From the NCBI GenBank assembly GCA_963696295.1, contig CAVOJR010000001.1, positions 384,001-448,000 on the forward strand: a stretch of DNA of 64,000 nucleotides, in the 5' to 3' direction. The notes beneath the pieces were generated by a model. It was given only the letters and a program-made list of their open reading frames with translations. It had not been told where the DNA came from and searched no databases. The position numbers and the translations under genes are program-made. The stretch's first letter is position 1. Each line of letters begins with the position of its first letter. Shown here piece by piece: positions 17,910 to 26,493 of the stretch. The stretch is from an uncultured Chlamydiae bacterium (lineage in GTDB: Bacteria; Chlamydiota; Chlamydiia; Chlamydiales; JAJFMB01).

Positions 17910-19637
17910 TTAATAACTCTTTACATTATAATCTTCTTCCATGGCTATCTGGACCAATTCTTTGGTAAACTGAAAAACATCGGTAATCGATCCCGGATAA
18001 TGAATCATCGTCGATATGGCAAGGGATGCTAATTCAGGGCCGCATTCTTTAATGGTTTGAATACATTTTTTTCTTCTGGCGGGATCGTTTCTATATTCCT
18101 CATCCGCCCATCCGATAAGAGAACGAAGTTGTTGAGGAGGAAGGACTTTTCCTTTAGCGGCAACATCTTCGAACAGCTCCACCACATTCTGCGGCTTATG
18201 TCCCAAAAGCAACTCTAAATTGGAATCGGACACATCCATAGGATGAGCCATTTGACTCTCCACTCCCCTGTAAGCATAATTAGTGGCATGTCCAATATTG
18301 ATAGTATCGCAAATTTTTTCTGTTATTTTCAGCGGAAGAACAAAGGGGCGTGGCTGATTTCCATAAGCTTTAGTCATCGCTTCTGTCAATTCGGCGGAAT
18401 TGGTCATGTGCCCAACAGCTGTTACAACAAATTTTCCATCGACACAAGCTGAGAAAGCTTCTCCAATATCATTAGATGAGGTGACGGGCAGCGGGATATT
18501 CCCGCCCCCTAAAGGCTGAATGGGGAGAAAAGCTGTGAAGGCAAGGCCGAAGGCTGTTGATTTACGAGTAGGAGCTCCGGGGCCGTCAATATAAGGCACT
18601 CTGATGAGGGTGCAATTGGTCGGCCCATATTGCAGCACTCTTTTTTCTTCTTCCTTTTTGAACTTTGCATAAATATCATCGGGAAGCATATCGACAACGG
18701 GGGAAGAAGCCGCATTCAATTGTATTCTTATGCCCATTTTATTTCCCTGGGTAGTTTCAAATTGGGCAGCCGCTTTGGCAATCATTTCACTCCGGTTAAG
18801 AGCTTTATCATAAGCTTCCTTGCAATTTTGCTGTACGGGTACGCCTAACAGGTTGTTAAATTGAACCTCTTTTTTCCCGGTTGAAACTTTTGTTATTAAA
18901 TTGACCCACTCATCTTGGCTGGTTGGAGTTAAGACATAATGGAGGCGTTCTAACTGCTTGGGTGTCAATTTTTTGATTATCTCAGCCATTTCAGGCGTGT
19001 CATAAGGGTTTTCCTTTCTTGAAGTAAAAGTCACATCAAAACCGCTTTTCAGGGCCTGAATGATACTATAATAGGCAATGTCTCCCGTTCCCCCTGCAAT
19101 GAGGACAGCCACTTCTTCTGGATGGTTAACATAGTGGTTTTGATGAATGACAGCAGAGGAAGCCGATCCATCCGGAAGCTTGGAAACAACGGCAACATCT
19201 TTTTCAGGTTTGAGCTCTACAGGTTTAATCTCCTCTTCATAGATATCAATTATTTGAGCTATCCCTTTATGCCTGGCATTAGAATTGGCATAGTCATGGG
19301 CAAGGGCTGCGGCGCCTAAAAGACCCACTCCAGCGGCCGCTTTGGTCCCGGTACCGGCGCCCTTCCCCGATTGTTTGGGGTTGGGGAGTCCTGTAGGGAA
19401 TTTGACTTGCGGTTTAATAAGCTCGAGCTCTTTTATTCTGAAATTGAAGGGGCGGGCTTGTGGTATACTGAGAGGTGTAGCGTGGAAATTTCGGGCGCTG
19501 TTTTCGAAGAGAGTGGTTTTGGCAACCTTGCCCGTATTGGTTATTGTTCTGGGAACCCCTTTTGTTAGGCCGTTTCTAAGGGCGTAGCCCATGGTGACCA
19601 TTATTCTTTCTGCCGGACCTCTGATAATATTTAACAT
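17910..19637 (-). CDS. Atypical SDR/NAD(P)-binding protein with long N-terminal extension
   Basis: VLIAGGTGDIA Rossmann motif, YAKFK (YxxxK), TLIRVPYIDG. Confidence 0.65.
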   Translation of the reverse strand: MLNIIRGPAERIMVTMGYALRNGLTKGVPRTITNTGKVAKTTLFENSARNFHATPLSIPQARPFNFRIKELELIKPQVKFPTGLPNPKQSGKGAGTGTKAAAGVGLLGAAALAHDYANSNARHKGIAQIIDIYEEEIKPVELKPEKDVAVVSKLPDGSASSAVIHQNHYVNHPEEVAVLIAGGTGDIAYYSIIQALKSGFDVTFTSRKENPYDTPEMAEIIKKLTPKQLERLHYVLTPTSQDEWVNLITKVSTGKKEVQFNNLLGVPVQQNCKEAYDKALNRSEMIAKAAAQFETTQGNKMGIRIQLNAASSPVVDMLPDDIYAKFKKEEEKRVLQYGPTNCTLIRVPYIDGPGAPTRKSTAFGLAFTAFLPIQPLGGGNIPLPVTSSNDIGEAFSACVDGKFVVTAVGHMTNSAELTEAMTKAYGNQPRPFVLPLKITEKICDTINIGHATNYAYRGVESQMAHPMDVSDSNLELLLGHKPQNVVELFEDVAAKGKVLPPQQLRSLIGWADEEYRNDPARRKKCIQTIKECGPELASLAISTMIHYPGSITDVFQFTKELVQIAMEEDYNVKSY

Positions 19638-19743: not shown

Positions 19744-20844
19744 TTAATGGCGGCAGAGATCTTCCTGCATCCATTGTAACGCTTTTCTTAAATCCGGTTC
19801 CGCGACTTCAGCACAGTAGTGCTCCCCGCAGCTCAAAGAAGAGCCGATCCCGTCGATCATCACAAAACGGGGCTTGCCCTGGCGGGCTTTCTTATCCAAC
19901 GCCATCGCCTCCAAAATAGATTCCACAGGCAACCGGCAAGGCAAGCGCAAAGGAAGCCCGTACTGACTGAGAATCTGTCTGATTTTGTCGCTCAAGGAAA
20001 GGCCGCCAGGCGAAAGGCGGCTTTCGACAAGAAGCCCGATCGCCACGGCTTCCCCATGGGAGAGGGCGTAATGGGTCAGCCGCTCCAAGGCGTGTCCGAT
20101 CGTATGGCCAAAATTCAATAGATGCCGCCTCCCTTTCTCCTTTTCATCTTGCTCCACGATCTCTTTTTTGATGCGGCAGCTCTCAAAAATCGCCTTTTCC
20201 AGAGTCGGGGGATCTAAGCTCAAAATCTGATGGGCATGAGTGTCAAGATACTCAAAAAAAGCGCGGTCTGCGATCAAACCGTGTTTTATCATCTCGACTA
20301 CTCCGTTGGAGAGCTCGTTTGCAGGCAAGCTTTTAAGGGTGGAGGGATCGATTACCACTTTCTTGGGCTGATAAATACATCCCAGCAAATTTTTTCCATA
20401 GGGAACATTGACCCCTGTTTTCCCCCCGATACTGGCATCCACCATCCCAAGGAGGGAGGTGGGGACCTGGACATAGGGAACGCCGCGGCAAAAGGTGGCG
20501 GCGAGATACCCGGCCACATCGGTTGCCACGCCGCCCCCAAGGGCGATCACACAGGTGTCGCGGCCAAGCCCCTTTTCAAACAGCCGATTTTCCAATTGCT
20601 CCTTGGTCTCCCGCGTTTTGTTCTGCTCCCCATGAGGAAAGGGGAAGAGATAGGCTTCCAAACCCAAAGAGGCAAAGGCCTCGCGGAGCGCTTCTCCATA
20701 CAAGGCCGCCACAATGTCATCGGAGATGATGGCTACCCGCTCCTTCAATATAGCGAGGCTCTGAGGGAGCTGCTGCAGCGCTCCGCTGCGGATTTCAATT
20801 TCATAAGATTCGGATTCATGTGGGATGTTACAAATCAATTTCAT
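19744..20844 (-). CDS. aroB: 3-dehydroquinate synthase
   Basis: GEQNK, ALGGGVATD, PTSLLGMVDASIGGKTGVN, LNFGHTIGHA, HGEAVA. Confidence 0.96.
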   Translation of the reverse strand: MKLICNIPHESESYEIEIRSGALQQLPQSLAILKERVAIISDDIVAALYGEALREAFASLGLEAYLFPFPHGEQNKTRETKEQLENRLFEKGLGRDTCVIALGGGVATDVAGYLAATFCRGVPYVQVPTSLLGMVDASIGGKTGVNVPYGKNLLGCIYQPKKVVIDPSTLKSLPANELSNGVVEMIKHGLIADRAFFEYLDTHAHQILSLDPPTLEKAIFESCRIKKEIVEQDEKEKGRRHLLNFGHTIGHALERLTHYALSHGEAVAIGLLVESRLSPGGLSLSDKIRQILSQYGLPLRLPCRLPVESILEAMALDKKARQGKPRFVMIDGIGSSLSCGEHYCAEVAEPDLRKALQWMQEDLCRH

Positions 20845-21932
20845 AGTTTCGCGCACCTGTTTAAGAGGAGGGCATCCGCAATCACTAAAGCGGCCATCGC
20901 TTCCACAATCGGGACAGCGCGTATCGCCACACAAGGATCGTGCCGCGACCCTATTGTGAGTTGAAACGACGCCTCTTCTTTGGACGTGGAAAGAGTCTGC
21001 TGCGGTTTCATGATACTCGAGGTGGGTTTGAAGGCTACCCTGCCGACGAGGGGCATCCCCGTGGATATCCCCCCTAAAGTCCCTCCCGCGTAATTGGTTG
21101 CGGTCTTCACTTCGCCCCCCACCTGTATGAAAGGATCGTTGTGTTCCGATCCCGGCATGGCGACCGACCTGAATCCCGAGCCGATTTCAAACCCCTTGGT
21201 GGCAGGCAGGCTCATCATGGCGTGCGCCAGATTAGCCTCCAATTTTTCATAAACCGGATCGCCAAGACCGGGCGGAAGCGAGAGAGCCATAAACTCGATC
21301 AGGCCCCCCAGAGAATCCCCTTCCGCTTTTGCCCGCTCTATCAGAGCCGCCATCTCAGACGCGGCCCTGGCATCGGGACAAAATAGGGGGCTTTGGTATG
21401 TTAAGGTGCGGATTAACTCGATATTGTCCCCTTCGACGATAGCCTCGACAGGGCCGATCTGCCTGATATAGGCCGTGAGCTTTATGCCATAGTGATCGAG
21501 CAGCTTCCTAGCCACAGCCCCGGCGGCCACGCGGCAGGCCGTTTCTCTCGCGGAGGAGCGGCCTCCCCCCCTGTAATCAAAAATCCCATATTTTTCCAGA
21601 TAGGTATAATTAGCATGCCCGGGCCGCAGCAAATCTTTGATCGGCTCATATTTGCTGGAATCGGCGTCTTGATTAGGAATAAGGATGCAGATCGGCGCGC
21701 CGGTCGTTTTCCCTTCAAAGACGCCCGAGAGAATTTCCGCTTTGTCCCCTTCTGTCCTCGGGGTGGTATAGGGGCTTTTTCCGGGGGCCCGCAATGCCAG
21801 AGCCGCATTGATTTCGCTCTCCTCAATGGCCAGGCCGGCCGGGCATCCGTCGATCACAACGCCTATCGCCTTGCCATGGGATTCTCCCCAGGTGGTAATC
21901 TTAAAAATATTCCCAAATGTATTACTTCCCAT
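20841..21932 (-). CDS. aroC: Chorismate synthase
   Basis: GESHG, RPGHA, GGGRSSARET, KPTSS, RHDPC. Confidence 0.97.
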   Translation of the reverse strand: MGSNTFGNIFKITTWGESHGKAIGVVIDGCPAGLAIEESEINAALALRAPGKSPYTTPRTEGDKAEILSGVFEGKTTGAPICILIPNQDADSSKYEPIKDLLRPGHANYTYLEKYGIFDYRGGGRSSARETACRVAAGAVARKLLDHYGIKLTAYIRQIGPVEAIVEGDNIELIRTLTYQSPLFCPDARAASEMAALIERAKAEGDSLGGLIEFMALSLPPGLGDPVYEKLEANLAHAMMSLPATKGFEIGSGFRSVAMPGSEHNDPFIQVGGEVKTATNYAGGTLGGISTGMPLVGRVAFKPTSSIMKPQQTLSTSKEEASFQLTIGSRHDPCVAIRAVPIVEAMAALVIADALLLNRCAKL

Positions 21933-22425
21933 AAGACAATTCCTTTAGGATGGCGGCCACAACTTCACTTTCGCTTAAGCAGCCTGTGTCAATAATCGCA
22001 TGCGCGGCTTTCTCATAAAGCGGTAAGCGCCTTTTTGCGAGTTCGGCAAATGATTTTTCCGGATCCCGGCGATCCAGATAGGCCGGGATCTCCTGCATTC
22101 TTTCAAGGAGCCTGTTTAGCGGAGCTTGAAGGTAAACCAATTTCCCGTTTGCCTGGAGGTTTCTCACATTGTCAGGATCATTCAGGCTTCCTCCCCCTAC
22201 TGCGATCACACTCTTTGAAACCCCTTGCAAAGAGGCGATTTGCTCTTTTTCCAGTTCCCGGAACGCCTTTTCCCCCTCTGCGAGAAATATGGCGCGGCAA
22301 GGGCTTCCCCTGACTTGCTCGATCAGCCGGTCGGTGTCGATAAAATTCCAGCCAAGCTTCTCTGCCACCCTTTTTCCGATCGTCGTTTTTCCGCTCATCG
22401 GCAGTCCGCACAAAATAATGTTCAT
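21922..22425 (-). CDS. aroK: Shikimate kinase
   Basis: GLPMSGKTT, DTD, GEKAFRELE, GGG, RLPLY. Confidence 0.95.
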   Translation of the reverse strand: MNIILCGLPMSGKTTIGKRVAEKLGWNFIDTDRLIEQVRGSPCRAIFLAEGEKAFRELEKEQIASLQGVSKSVIAVGGGSLNDPDNVRNLQANGKLVYLQAPLNRLLERMQEIPAYLDRRDPEKSFAELAKRRLPLYEKAAHAIIDTGCLSESEVVAAILKELSYGK

Positions 22426-23717
22426 AAAAGCTCCTCAATGTCAGCGCCCAGGGCATTGAAATCGCGCTTGAAGGTCGGGAACGTTTTGGAAACGCATTCC
22501 ACAGAATCCACTATCGTTTCCCCCTCGGCGCCCAAGGCGGCCACAGCGAGCGACATCGCCATCCGGTGGTCGTGGTGCGAGTGCACATGCGCTCCCTTGA
22601 GCGAGGATTTCCTGATGCATAAACCCTCTTCTGTTTCGGTGATGTCCGCCCCCATTTTCCTCAATTCTTCGGCAATGCAGCGGATCCGGTTGCACTCTTT
22701 TTGCTTCGCGACGGCGGCATTGACGATGCGCGTCTCCCCTTCGGCATAGCACGACACCACGGCTAAAATAGTGATGGCATCGATGAAGGCGTTGATATCC
22801 ACCTCAAGGCCTCTTAGAGGGCCCCCTTTTTTGACATGCACCGTTTTGTTTTCCTCGTCGATTTCGATCGCGCCCCCCATCTTCTGAAATACCCTCAGAA
22901 GCTCTTTATCTCCTTGAGAATCGTTCATATCGATATTGTGCACAGTCAATTCCGATTGGGTGATTAAGGCCGCCGCAATCGGAAAGGCAGCGGAACTGAA
23001 ATCGCCTGGAACCGTGTATTCAAAACCCTCGATCCTGCTATTTCCCAAAAGGCGGTACCGCTCAAATGCCCGATTTTCATAAGGGATGCTAAGCTTGTCA
23101 AACCAATCCAATGTCAGCGAAATCCACGGTTTTTCCCCGGGATTTTGAACCTCAAGCTCTACGGGGCCTTCGGCGAAAGCGGAAGCGATCAGCAGCGCAG
23201 ACACCGGCTGTGAATCTTCCCCGTTGAGCAAGGCTCTTCCCGGCTTGATTGGGCCTTGAATGATCACCGGCGCATAGCCGTCCCCCCGCATGGAGGCGGT
23301 TGATACGCCGAGCTGAGCGAGGCCGCCTAGCAGCGGTTTCATCGGCCGCTGATGGCGAATAGAATAATCTCCTGTGATGACGACCGGTTTTTTGGCGAGC
23401 GCGCCGATGGCGGTACAAAACCGCAGCACAATGCCTGAGTTGCCGGCGTTGATCACATCTTCCGTATGATCGACTTTGCCGCTGATCCCTTCAATATCGA
23501 TGTGATGAGGGGAAACATCCAAAGCGGCCCCGAAAAGGCGGCAAGCCTCGATCATGGCGTGCGTATCCGAAGAGGGGAGATAGCGGTTAATCCGGCTCTT
23601 TCCCCTTCCCAGCGCTCCGAAAAGGAGGGCTCTTAGCGTATGGGATTTGGAGGCAGGGACCGAAATCCCTCCCTTCACTGTCCCTTGTTTTATTCTGTAT
23701 CTCATTTTTGACATCAT
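22422..23717 (-). CDS. aroA: EPSP synthase
   Basis: SKSHTLR, GNSG, RPM, DSQ, GDFSSA, KECNR, DHRMAM. Confidence 0.96.
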   Translation of the reverse strand: MMSKMRYRIKQGTVKGGISVPASKSHTLRALLFGALGRGKSRINRYLPSSDTHAMIEACRLFGAALDVSPHHIDIEGISGKVDHTEDVINAGNSGIVLRFCTAIGALAKKPVVITGDYSIRHQRPMKPLLGGLAQLGVSTASMRGDGYAPVIIQGPIKPGRALLNGEDSQPVSALLIASAFAEGPVELEVQNPGEKPWISLTLDWFDKLSIPYENRAFERYRLLGNSRIEGFEYTVPGDFSSAAFPIAAALITQSELTVHNIDMNDSQGDKELLRVFQKMGGAIEIDEENKTVHVKKGGPLRGLEVDINAFIDAITILAVVSCYAEGETRIVNAAVAKQKECNRIRCIAEELRKMGADITETEEGLCIRKSSLKGAHVHSHHDHRMAMSLAVAALGAEGETIVDSVECVSKTFPTFKRDFNALGADIEELL

Positions 23718-24727
23718 ATCATCCCTGCCTTTAAATAATCCAGCCATCGCTCCAAGTAATAGCGGATGAGAGGCTGGTTTTCTATTTCCCCATTGTCGCG
23801 AGCCAGGCGGGTAAAGGATTGAAACCCGGGTCCGGCTATCCTCAAGCTCTCCTTGTCGTGGGCGCTCACAAAATCGAAATACGATTTCGATAATACAGCG
23901 GGAAGGTGGGAAACCAAAGCCGCCTGATGGTCATGGACGGCAGCCTCTAAAAAGACGGGTTTGCCCCCCAAGTACTTGATCCACTCGATGATGCTGTCAA
24001 TACCATTTCCCTGGTGAGGCACAACCACCCATGGCCTGTTAACAAACAAAGTCGCCTGGCTATTGGCAAATCCCCCGTTCTCCTTGCCGGCCATCGGGTG
24101 GGTGCTGATATATTCCAAGCCCTCCCCCGACAGCTTTTCAAAAGTTGCCGCGATGGCCGTTTTCACACCGGCAATATCGATCACGATCAATTTTTTCTGG
24201 CAGTGCCGCTTAATCTCCTCTGCCAAAGGGATTATCGTTGAGAGAGGGGAAGCTAAAACAATCAGCTCCGCGTTCTGAACCAGCTCTTGCATCCCGGAAT
24301 ACACCTTGTCAATCCATCCCCCTGCCAGCGCCTCCTCATCCACAGCGCCGCTGACCGTCCCGATCTCAATAGAGGGATCTTTCGTTTTGAGCGCTTTAGC
24401 GAGCGACCCCCCCATCAGCCCCACCCCCACGATGCCGATGCGGCGGAACGGTTGAGAAAGGTGTTGAAAAAAATGTTGCGCCACCTTCGATTCCTGCATG
24501 ATTTCCCTATAGATATGTCCGATATTCTCTTTTAAAACCGGATGCCGGACGACCCTCTCCACCTGATCCAGAACTTTCTCTTCCCGGGAAAAATCGGTCA
24601 CATCCTGGTGCCGCTCGGCCTTGATTTTTCCCGCCTGATCGGCCGCGCTCATCCTTTCATTGAGCAATGAGGCAATTTGAGCATCCAGCCAATCGATCCT
24701 TTCCCGCAATTTCTCTAATTTGTCCAT
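23714..24727 (-). CDS. tyrA: Chorismate mutase / prephenate dehydrogenase fusion
   Basis: N-terminal LRERIDWLD...RE (AroQ); GVGLMGGS, DIAGVK, HPMAG, HD...SHLP. Confidence 0.9.
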   Translation of the reverse strand: MDKLEKLRERIDWLDAQIASLLNERMSAADQAGKIKAERHQDVTDFSREEKVLDQVERVVRHPVLKENIGHIYREIMQESKVAQHFFQHLSQPFRRIGIVGVGLMGGSLAKALKTKDPSIEIGTVSGAVDEEALAGGWIDKVYSGMQELVQNAELIVLASPLSTIIPLAEEIKRHCQKKLIVIDIAGVKTAIAATFEKLSGEGLEYISTHPMAGKENGGFANSQATLFVNRPWVVVPHQGNGIDSIIEWIKYLGGKPVFLEAAVHDHQAALVSHLPAVLSKSYFDFVSAHDKESLRIAGPGFQSFTRLARDNGEIENQPLIRYYLERWLDYLKAGMI

Positions 24728-25524
24728 CCCAATCCTCTTTGATATAAACCCAATAATTTGTGTTTTTTAAGTTTCTCCAAAACCTTTTCAATCTCTATTC
24801 CCCTAAATTCGAAGTCGAGATAGAACAGATACTCAAAAGGGGAGCCCTTTAAAGGGCGGGACTCCAGCCTGGTTAAATTAATCCCAGCCTCGGCGAAAGG
24901 ATTCAGTATTTCAGCAAGAGCTCCCGGAACATGGTTCAGCTGCAACAGCAGCGAGCACTTATCGGCAAGTTCCCCAGGCTCTGCTTTTTTTGCGAGCGTC
25001 ACAAAGCGGGTATAATTCCTCGGATCGTCTTCAATCCCCTTTTCAATCATTTCCAACCCATACAGCCTTTGCGCGCTTGCGCTGGCAATGGCTGCGAGGG
25101 AGGGATCTCCTAAAGAGGCGATCTCTTGCGCTGCGGCGGCCGTATCGATAAAGACGACCGCTTCCATCCAGGGATGCCGCTCAAAAAAGTTCCGGCATTG
25201 ATCCAGCGCTTTTGGGTGGGACAGCACCTTTTTTATCCCCTTTAAATCCTTTTGCACCCCAAGCAGGCACTGTTCGATTTTAGTGTAATGCTCTCCAATA
25301 ATCTGCATGTCAAAGGCGTTCAGAAGATCGTAGTTCTCGCAGATGGAGCCGATCAGACTGTTTTCGATGGGGATCACCGCATAATCAGCCGCCCCCGTCT
25401 CAATATGCTCAAAAACGGCTTTAAAGGTGGGCAACCCTAAGTAATTGTGCCCCTCGCCAAACGCTTTTAAAGCCGTCATATGGCTGAAGGCTCCCTCAAC
25501 TCCCTGATAAGCAATCGTTTTCAT
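24715..25524 (-). CDS. pheA: Prephenate dehydratase with ACT domain
   Basis: YQGVEGAFS, PIENS, SHPKALDQC, NYTRF, NLTRLESRP. Confidence 0.95.
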   Translation of the reverse strand: MKTIAYQGVEGAFSHMTALKAFGEGHNYLGLPTFKAVFEHIETGAADYAVIPIENSLIGSICENYDLLNAFDMQIIGEHYTKIEQCLLGVQKDLKGIKKVLSHPKALDQCRNFFERHPWMEAVVFIDTAAAAQEIASLGDPSLAAIASASAQRLYGLEMIEKGIEDDPRNYTRFVTLAKKAEPGELADKCSLLLQLNHVPGALAEILNPFAEAGINLTRLESRPLKGSPFEYLFYLDFEFRGIEIEKVLEKLKKHKLLGLYQRGLGWTN

Positions 25525-26288
25525 GCCGCCTCTAGCTTTTTTAACAAATCTTGCAACTGAGGCGGAGAAAGCTGCTGCTTCGCATCGGTTATCGCATTTC
25601 CGGGATCGGAGTGCATTTCGATGAGATACCCATCAAAATCATACGCCAGGGCGCTTTGACAAATCGCGAGGACATTCTCTTGAGTGCCTCCGATATGGGA
25701 GGGATCGAGAATCATTGGGAGACCTGTCTTTGCCTTGACCCGCATGGCCATCTCAAAATCGGGCAGGTTGCGGTAACCGTTCAGATTTGGCGCCTTGCCC
25801 GGAGAAAATCCCCGATGGCAGATCATCAGCCGTTCCCGGGGAAACCCCTCGGAGAGAATATGTTCGTGGATCCCCAGCCAATGCTTTTCATCCTCCCACA
25901 TCTGGTTCTTGAACATCAAGGTGATCCCCTCAGGCCCGGTGGAAAGTATTTTAGAGATCTTCTGCTGCTCCATGTGATTTTGATTGCGGGATCCGAGCCA
26001 CACGACCATCCGCGCCTCAGGCCCATAGTGCTCCATCGCGTGCACCACCATCAGGGCGTGTTCCGCCGTCATGATTTCCGTGGCCGGCACTAACCCGTAA
26101 GGGATCGTTTCCTCAAGCAGAAGGGGAAGGCCCATCCTTCCGAACCCCTCCCACCCGGGCTGTGTGCGGGGCTTCCACAAAGAAGCGCGCACCATCGCGA
26201 CCCCCATCCGCCTCAAGACCTGCACACACTCCTTCAGCTGCTGCGGGGACTCCAAGGCGCACGGTCCTGCTATGACCATTTTATTCAT
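25521..26288 (-). CDS. DAHP synthase (class I-beta, catalytic barrel only)
   Basis: IAGPC, WKPRT, CHRG, DPSH, IEMH...D..QQL; first gene of the aro operon. Confidence 0.85.
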   Translation of the reverse strand: MNKMVIAGPCALESPQQLKECVQVLRRMGVAMVRASLWKPRTQPGWEGFGRMGLPLLLEETIPYGLVPATEIMTAEHALMVVHAMEHYGPEARMVVWLGSRNQNHMEQQKISKILSTGPEGITLMFKNQMWEDEKHWLGIHEHILSEGFPRERLMICHRGFSPGKAPNLNGYRNLPDFEMAMRVKAKTGLPMILDPSHIGGTQENVLAICQSALAYDFDGYLIEMHSDPGNAITDAKQQLSPPQLQDLLKKLEAA

Positions 26289-26314: not shown

Positions 26315-26343
26315 AAAAAAAAACCCCGCTTTTGGCGGGGTCT
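26315..26343 (-). terminator. Attenuator terminator upstream of the DAHP synthase gene
   Basis: Minus strand ACCCCGC-CAAAA-GCGGGG followed by U9. Confidence 0.9.
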
Positions 26344-26371
26344 GTTTTTAGCTTGTCTTTTTTTACAAGCG

Positions 26372-26440
26372 TCAGTCAGCCTCCCGCCTCATGGGTTTAG
26401 TAAAAAAGAAAAAAAAGGCGGTAAAAGACAAACGGTTCAT
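26372..26440 (-). CDS. Phe-rich leader peptide (PheL-like), MNRLSFTAFFFFFTKPMRREAD
   Basis: 22 codons, 6 Phe (5 consecutive), AAGGA RBS, located between promoter and terminator. Confidence 0.88.
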   Translation of the reverse strand: MNRLSFTAFFFFFTKPMRREAD

Positions 26441-26464
26441 GTAAAATTCCTTCATTTAACTATA

Positions 26465-26493
26465 ATTCTATATTATAATAAATTAATTGTCAA
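26465..26493 (-). promoter_or_regulatory. Promoter of the aro/phe/tyr operon
   Basis: TTGACA-N17-TAGAAT. Confidence 0.8.

Follow-up and report, generated by a model that had tools for sequence, protein, structure and literature searches.

Among described systems, the one closest to the element presented here is the pheL leader of E. coli pheA. For this leader, the accessible text of Gurvich et al. (PMC3082878) gives a basal read-through of about 10% when phenylalanine is plentiful, and its survey names Bacteroides and Desulfobacterium as the only occurrences outside the gammaproteobacteria. In the aroR-aroF system of Corynebacterium glutamicum, an experimentally supported Phe/Tyr leader precedes DAHP synthase and responds to phenylalanine limitation; tyrosine did not act, according to the available portions of PMC11802643, which summarises Neshat et al. 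2014. A predicted phenylalanine uORF with a terminator, uORFC-13-1, stands before DAHP synthase and is attributed, in the accessible sections of Brewer et al. 2021 (PMC8632094), to Acholeplasma and unnamed environmental sequences only, the Chlamydiae genome named there for the screen being Chlamydia pecorum. Excerpts of further papers mention attenuators predicted in other phyla at the head of supraoperons that contain tyrA (PMC1173090), a predicted aroF attenuator in Shewanella (PMC2659441) and the tandem attenuators of Salmonella mgtCBR, where two leader ORFs lie in series on one transcript (PMC3641672). Within the Chlamydiae, the accessible text of PMC7755916 and PMC3937554 concerns tryptophan control, through a putative trpL of C. 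trachomatis and C. felis and through YtgR trans-attenuation, and describes the C. trachomatis trp leader as an unvalidated, atypical one that is expected from prediction to attenuate poorly. A reading of the present DNA from sequence alone had known of no phenylalanine attenuator in Chlamydiae, and a literature search likewise found no published Phe/Tyr attenuator in Chlamydiae or Patescibacteria; the chlamydial papers found treat, in their available text, tryptophan alone, and older surveys (Panina 2001, Vitreschak 2004, Lopatovskaya 2010, the Merino database) may list one.

The locus analysed here lies in a 64,000-nucleotide stretch of DNA from an uncultured Chlamydiae bacterium, referred to as a whole as the window. 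The genome is taken as that of an environmental chlamydia; an OmcB-like match in it falls below the relevant cut-off. A series of signals on its minus strand very probably constitutes a ribosome-mediated transcription attenuator of the pheL type that senses charged tRNA-Phe, as judged from sequence and folding models. All of the following coordinates are on that strand. A putative promoter of the sigma-70/sigma-66 type, TTGACA-N17-TAGAAT (26465..26493), matches the consensus at 11/12 positions, with a 17-nt spacer between the TTGACA box (26493-26488) and the TAGAAT box (26470-26465); promoters of similar type occur 5′ of the first unit in two relatives (L087, L092) and 5′ of a paralogue of the element. 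The Shine-Dalgarno sequence AAGGA (26448..26452), complementary to the 3′ end of the 16S rRNA found in the same genome, lies 7 nt 5′ of the ATG of a 22-aa leader ORF (26372..26440), which reads MNRLSFTAFFFFFTKPMRREAD up to its stop, contains six Phe and no Tyr codons, and has homologous F/Y ORFs in 52 units. Its presumed control codons are F6 and F9-F13 (26425-26402). A second in-frame ATG at 26455 (26441-26455), overlooked in the sequence-only reading, would prepend MKEFY to the leader; it was taken as the less probable main start because it lies ∼3 nt from the likely transcription start and has no Shine-Dalgarno sequence.

Four pairing segments are distributed along the leader. Segment 1 (26415..26421) is the anti-antiterminator arm, partnered with segment 2 in the predicted fold; segment 2 (26383..26390), the antiterminator arm, is placed at +14 nt relative to the last Phe codon and ends 7 nt short of the stop codon; segment 3 (26334..26340) is the 5′ arm of the terminator and is also used by the antiterminator; segment 4 and the U9 tract (26315..26329; segment 4 at 26329-26324, the nine U at 26323-26315) complete the intrinsic terminator. 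The latter, a 9-pair hairpin followed by U9, is located between the leader and aroG, 27 nt 5′ of the aroG start. A spacer hairpin, GCUUGU/ACAAGC (26351..26370), is contained within the 2:3 loop and is typical of first-position and permease units. Promoter, ribosome-binding site, leader ORF, the four segments, spacer hairpin and U9 tract were all found where the sequence-only reading had placed them.

That reading had also proposed mutually exclusive 1:2, 2:3 and 3:4 pairings, and upon folding of both conformers all three helices form as described. Predicted energies are -15.2 kcal/mol for the terminator (z -4.1), -23.4 kcal/mol for the 2:3 pairing with its inner hairpin (z -5.1) and -17.4 kcal/mol for the 1:2 region (z -2.5), whose helix is a clean 7 bp; the whole-leader fold has a z of -3.6. 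In masked folding, a ribosome footprint is imposed on the nascent RNA, here in four sizes reaching +11 to +17 nt. For every A-site position between S5 and T14, all Phe codons included, segment 3 is sequestered at 0.99, as against 0.04-0.10 over the four footprint sizes with the ribosome at the stop. The spacing agrees in these folds and in the geometry, a stalled ribosome leaving segment 2 free and a ribosome at the stop masking it. At equilibrium, terminator probability is 1.00 with the ribosome at the stop or with none and averages 0.51 when it is stalled; with the terminator about half formed in that state, read-through would rely on 2:3 forming before segment 4 exists. Without a ribosome, segment 2 occupancy is 0.82 on a transcript ending 14 nt past segment 2, and 2:3-type pairing still takes segment 3 at 0.78 on the truncated transcript, which counts against the model.

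According to the proposed mechanism, RNA polymerase would start near 26458 and a ribosome would load on the leader. When Phe-tRNA is plentiful, the ribosome would reach the stop and cover segment 2, allowing 3:4 and the U9 tract to end transcripts near 26315-26318. When Phe-tRNA is scarce, it would wait at F6 or F9-F13 and cover segment 1, and the exposed segment 2 would capture segment 3 before segment 4 is made, so that the seven-gene aro-pheA-tyrA operon would be read. In the absence of translation, 1:2 and 3:4 would form and transcription would end. The earlier claim that the seven genes are read only when phenylalanine is scarce stands as regards the Phe-sensing logic; its 'only' is too strong, given the basal read-through of E. 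coli pheA.

Related leaders provide a wider view of this logic. The 52 units considered were hand-picked from RNA-model matches and ORF scans and are related to each other, so that all counts drawn from them are non-independent. By masked folding, 39/52 switch by more than 0.3. The start of segment 2 lies at a median of 12 nt (range 2-18) past the last control codon, and its end falls within -20 to +12 nt of the stop in 52/52. The 2:3 duplex is better than in shuffled sequences (p<=0.05) in 44/52 units, a unit's own terminator arm is better than the median foreign arm in 41/52, and in two divergent units (L002, L070) the antiterminator is rebuilt with other letters. The start-codon frame holds 327 F+Y codons in total, the other frames 154 and 168; it is strictly highest in 44/52 units, and the control codons TTT/TTC/TAT/TAC occur in frame 142/42/92/51 times.

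These codon counts bear on the idea of a general sensor of translation speed or of the aromatic pool, in which ribosomes are slowed or shifted in frame by a slippery U-rich run and the operon opens upon any delay ahead of codon 15, whether from the stringent response, antibiotics or low initiation. Such a sensor would explain why the switch is equally open for a ribosome at any point between S5 and T14, and the window copy itself has features that suit it: the Phe run is near poly(U), with an F/Y count of 7 in the +2 frame vs 6 in the leader frame, so that the run alone proves nothing, and leader stops in two frames fall after segment 2; several homologues also terminate in another frame. The relatives, however, alternate TTT/TTC with TAT/TAC in frame, which breaks the poly(U), and their F:Y ratio tracks pheA content and permease context, a correspondence needless for a non-specific sensor. 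We regard this explanation as very unlikely.

The sequence-only reading had asked for conserved Phe codons and for covariation among relatives. The former were obtained, F/Y codons being conserved in frame together with leader ORFs and terminators in orthologous upstream regions, but column-wise 2:3 covariation in a MAFFT alignment was no better than in shuffles (0.050 vs 0.074; 470/500 shuffles as high). With so little variation in the core, and with register shifts in the divergent units, this column measure is unsupportive. The 2:3 helix has a two-sided change in only one pair, although 83% of its cells pair vs 49-60% in slid registers. RNAalifold on a 24-unit alignment recovered the terminator alone. 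Segment 1 is the least conserved part and the position of the 1:2 partner varies across the family; in first-position chlamydial units segment 1 overlaps or precedes the control codons, the window copy being a case of overlap, and in many others it follows them. What is conserved at the core is the masking of segment 2 by a ribosome at the stop codon. With these details, the pheL/trpL logic first attributed to the leader holds in the computational tests of geometry and of leader conservation (masked folding, leaders and terminators of relatives, permease copy).

A recurrent C-terminal tail, PxRRE[AVI][DCNG], is present in many Chlamydiales units, as would suit a TnaC-like nascent-peptide arrest, in which the peptide with its P-x-x-R-R-E tail stalls the ribosome on free aromatic amino acid. 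The tail is, however, the GGCGGGAGG segment 2 read in frame. A change of frame removes it in the paralogue (…THEAGG before the stop), L091, L093a and L130, and it is absent from Roizmanbacteria units whose stop precedes segment 2. The C-terminal peptide is not conserved across these frame changes, which argues against arrest; TnaC-like leaders differ in having a conserved C-terminal arrest sequence, missing here, where homologues change their C-terminal frame. In masked folding, moreover, a stall at the tail would close the switch, not open it. Peptide arrest is scarcely credible on this evidence, and stalling at Phe codons through scarcity of charged tRNA-Phe remains the preferred reading.

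The genes downstream agree in identity with the shikimate-to-Phe/Tyr operon of seven genes that had been assigned. On the minus strand, these are aroG, a DAHP synthase I-beta of 255 aa (25521..26288, ATG at 26288), which consists of the catalytic domain only and would be the first regulated gene; pheA, a prephenate dehydratase with an ACT domain (24715..25524); CM/tyrA, a chorismate mutase-prephenate dehydrogenase (23714..24727); aroA, EPSP synthase (22422..23747); aroK, shikimate kinase (21922..22425); aroC, chorismate synthase (20841..21932); and aroB, 3-dehydroquinate synthase (19744..20934), at the end of the run. The seven overlap or abut, an arrangement consistent with their co-transcription. 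No intrinsic terminator was found 3′ of aroB; a 575-aa ORF without Pfam match (17910-19637, minus strand) follows after an AT-rich gap of 107 nt, itself without an intrinsic terminator. In relatives an aroDE fusion closes the aro operon; the initial reading overlooked that here aroDE lies elsewhere, at C1:1524686-1526030 on the minus strand, where a small zinc-ribbon gene and a groEL-like gene precede it.

When an RNA model trained on 24 units was searched against the genome, it gave two full-length matches, the window element and a second copy, overlooked earlier, at C1:2563233-2563355. This paralogue has its own promoter and the leader MPSYLFTPFFFFFTTHEAGG up to the stop, and lies directly 5′ of a gene of the Trp/Tyr permease (TyrP) family, of which the 3.4-Mb genome holds seven. 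Its equilibrium terminator probability is 1.00 even with a stalled ribosome, so that it relies wholly on kinetics. The paralogous copy would act on the permease in the same way, giving a small phenylalanine regulon of synthesis and import. Orthologues of this permease occur in 23/400 genomes of the order, and the RNA model finds the element 5′ of the permease at 10/23 orthologous loci, all ten as single units; in G047 it lies two genes further upstream, before an aminotransferase. An orphan 3′ half, made of spacer hairpin and terminator with no leader ORF, sits at the end of an unrelated gene (L065:1501-1571, plus strand; G140), which suggests that the cassette has been copied around. At L056:1204-1371 (minus strand), and also 5′ of the permease gene in L125 and L133, are Phe-rich ORFs of 44-60 aa with a run such as YFFFFSFFRFSPFFS at their end before the stop and no obvious intrinsic terminator; in L056 and L133 this ORF comes after a standard unit, forming a mixed tandem.

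The amino acids encoded in the control region vary with gene content. Measured over the 9 codons richest in F+Y, the fraction contributed by Phe is 0.57 for 16 units of nine pheA-containing chlamydial operons and 0.23 for six units from four genomes in which no PDT domain was found, one of them 61% complete and two without a completeness figure (per-genome Mann-Whitney p = 0.007, uncorrected for kinship). It reaches 0.88 in the 10 permease leaders, and L094, fetched after the comparison, has no pheA in its operon and a leader with YYYYY. The 26 Roizmanbacteria units have a share of 0.55; an exception to the codon rule, suspected when tblastn found no pheA in that group, was ruled out, as the PDT domain is present in 5/5 genomes tested. 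At the level of sequence, the sensing codons follow what the downstream genes make. The window copy is an outlier that counts against the model: it is Phe-only, though its operon has both Phe and Tyr branches. A phenylalanine hydroxylase would have been a possible reason, but none was found in the genome, which is 97% complete. An inactive TyrA may be another; CM/TyrA (23714-24727, minus strand) keeps its catalytic motifs and, compared with four relatives, lacks 6 residues of the C-terminal dimerisation region and 3 residues of a loop.

The distribution of the element was followed through its first gene. The short DAHP synthase occurs in 15/400 genomes of the order as 19 gene copies, nine with the leader, nine without and one at a contig edge; seven of the nine leaderless copies have no other aro gene in the 1.5-kb flank. 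In a collection of named genomes, the leader is present at 13/15 loci (Parachlamydiaceae/Chlamydiales, Oligoflexia and Roizmanbacteria records), including one Oligoflexia genome with the leader 5′ of the same DAHP synthase. In the Roizmanbacteria order, 19/201 genomes have the gene and 18/19 loci an RNA-model match, one of them weak; four of these loci duplicated earlier loci and were counted from those. Among metagenome loci, 32 were found and five gene fragments left out; the model matches 26 of the 27 searched, a set in which some Roizmanbacteria-type loci repeat training sequences and L087-L095 are new. New metagenome loci at 75-81% identity have two units in 6/7 cases. Roizmanbacteria-order loci, too, mostly carry two units in series, 20-250 nt apart, several leaving no space for a second promoter.

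Single units in other lineages are represented by L027, L033, L041 and L070, and in L091 and L028 a lone leader is succeeded by a pair of abutting terminators, as though a deletion had been caught midway. A FastTree of 51 DAHP synthases places the window gene among two-unit loci as sister to L024 (support 0.87), and the window unit is of the first-position type in a weakly supported unit tree; loss of a second unit is therefore the simplest history. The window copy would descend from the first unit of a two-unit Phe/Tyr array such as those of related operons, and seems to have lost the second unit and the Tyr codons, so that Phe-only sensing by a single unit is, from this placement, the derived state, its closest relatives having a series of two Phe/Tyr units. 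The idea that the Phe-only leader arose by gene conversion from the permease copy was rejected as unsupported: the window unit scores best against L056 and against L092a, L088a, L090a and L087a, the last four being first units of the closest aro relatives and all outscoring any permease unit, and the unit tree has weak support. Loss of the second unit, the two small deletions in CM/TyrA and the displacement of aroDE could also be taken as signs of a degenerate relic that has lost a unit and its Tyr codons, with a hairpin that just damps basal expression or yields a constitutive small RNA. Yet promoter, Shine-Dalgarno sequence, frame, Phe run, spacing and all four segments are intact, the clean 1:2 helix included, and single units are common elsewhere (the four loci above and all 10 permease copies). 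A relic is thus extremely unlikely in our estimate, and a working attenuator is the reading retained.

Chlamydial DAHP synthases surround that of Oligoflexia, with the Roizmanbacteria genes as a clade next to them, a pattern that suggests horizontal transfer of the gene among these groups. Loci L031 and L034, from records titled uncultured Gammaproteobacteria, belong to genomes of 0.8-1.2 Mb in the same order as Roizmanbacteria. Patescibacteria, usually said to lack such aromatic pathways, have at L032:7986-15452 (plus strand) and at related loci a complete shikimate-to-Phe/Tyr operon that includes a TyrA-PDT-type fusion; a class IV aminotransferase-like gene lies on its 5′ side and a TyrRS-like gene on its 3′ side. 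Two other Chlamydiales genomes have different leaders before a long-form DAHP synthase, ending in F/Y-rich stretches at their stops (L006:2540-2650, minus strand, …RFFMSYYFGV; L007:2560-2680, minus strand, …FSFYFFYFGA). These are unmatched by the RNA model and carry a short GC hairpin over the stop codon and no U-tract terminator, possibly for Rho-dependent or translational control.

Against the genomic background, the combination of features is rare. A short ORF with 5 or more F/Y in 9 codons lies upstream of just 3/349 terminator-like sites, namely those of the window element, of its paralogue and of a third case, antisense within a coding gene. Duplexes matching the 2:3 pairing in strength occur upstream of 32/349 sites, and antiterminator strength alone is unexceptional. 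Curated Rfam matches in the whole 64-kb window are to tRNA only, with no T-box or riboswitch. No convincing leader attenuator was seen 5′ of the trp operon, pheS or four other permease loci, an inspection that covered permease genes other than the second gene of a tandem pair (one of the seven). One short candidate was noted by eye at C1 ∼1574140-1574200 (plus strand), 5′ of that tandem pair: a promoter-proximal ORF, MLNLSFFWPQG…, over a GGCCGCAAGGCC hairpin, resembling the terminator-less leader type. The trpR-permease-trpD-C-F-B-A-kynureninase operon (C1:1224600-1231473, plus strand; names from translations) has no visible leader peptide, and tryptophan appears to be repressor-controlled while phenylalanine is attenuator-controlled in this genome. 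With regard to transcription-translation coupling, the distance from terminator to stop is no more than 12 nt in 5/25 cases, with a median of 26 nt, a test with too few sites to carry weight; Chlamydiota do not figure among the phyla classed as runaway-transcribing in the available text of PMC13323073.

A broader interpretation, held tentatively and with slightly less than even confidence, is that of a portable aromatic-sensing cassette of environmental chlamydiae, Patescibacteria and Oligoflexia, copied before genes of synthesis or import, arranged as serial units that would multiply the response where the DAHP synthase has no feedback domain, and re-tuned by Phe/Tyr codon swaps to match downstream supply. 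If so, the leader would read out function, and the members of the TyrP subfamily found in 23/400 genomes of the order would import phenylalanine. For this branch of the TyrP family, which is expanded in chlamydiae, the substrate would thereby be predicted in a form open to testing. Obligate intracellular chlamydiae would then gauge host phenylalanine supply by a classical cis attenuator, which is apparently missing from pathogenic Chlamydia. Attenuation of this kind would imply tight transcription-translation coupling in these symbionts, with phenylalanine as a monitored nutrient. The natural single, tandem and collapsed arrays, with their varied Phe:Tyr ratios, offer a test of whether tandem attenuators multiply dynamic range and whether specificity is set by codon content.

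Compared with known systems, the window element resembles E. coli pheL-pheA and the Rfam family Phe_leader (RF01859) in its short leader with a Phe run, its 1:2, 2:3 and 3:4 hairpins and its U tract. Phe_leader is the best full-model Rfam match, at 36.5 bits (E 1.6e-4) and including the CCC…GGGAGGC stretch. Membership was rejected, the score being below the 55-bit threshold, the first gene encoding DAHP synthase and pheA coming second; no gathering-level Rfam match was obtained in the window or at 10 related loci. Unlike pheL, the window leader precedes a whole shikimate-to-Phe/Tyr operon and its paralogue a permease; it is without the UUC_CCC_UGA end, and its relatives mix Phe and Tyr and come in tandem. 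The likeness to aroR-aroF, taken from descriptions, is one of position before DAHP synthase; that system has an FYF motif in one unit in a different phylum, and aroR holds both Phe and Tyr codons, whereas the window copy has no Tyr codon and its relatives do. By analogy with aroR, Tyr codons in the relatives may not sense tyrosine, a caution for the codon comparison. With uORFC-13-1, likened by description, the element shares a Phe uORF, a terminator and DAHP synthase. The chlamydial trpL belongs to the same phylum and likewise represents amino-acid-sensing control of a biosynthetic operon, but the window element has a textbook anatomy and conserved homologues, and would be a well-formed, conserved cis-acting leader-peptide attenuator in the Chlamydiota, where the sole proposed case, C. 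trachomatis trpL, is atypical and unvalidated according to the available text of PMC7755916. The ORFs of mgtCBR are unrelated to aromatic synthesis, in contrast to the relatives of the window element, which consist of two paralogous units sensing the same amino-acid pair, the window having one. The mechanism is already known from textbooks; the family is uncatalogued, and is set apart by its tandem arrays, its permease branch and its codon tuning.
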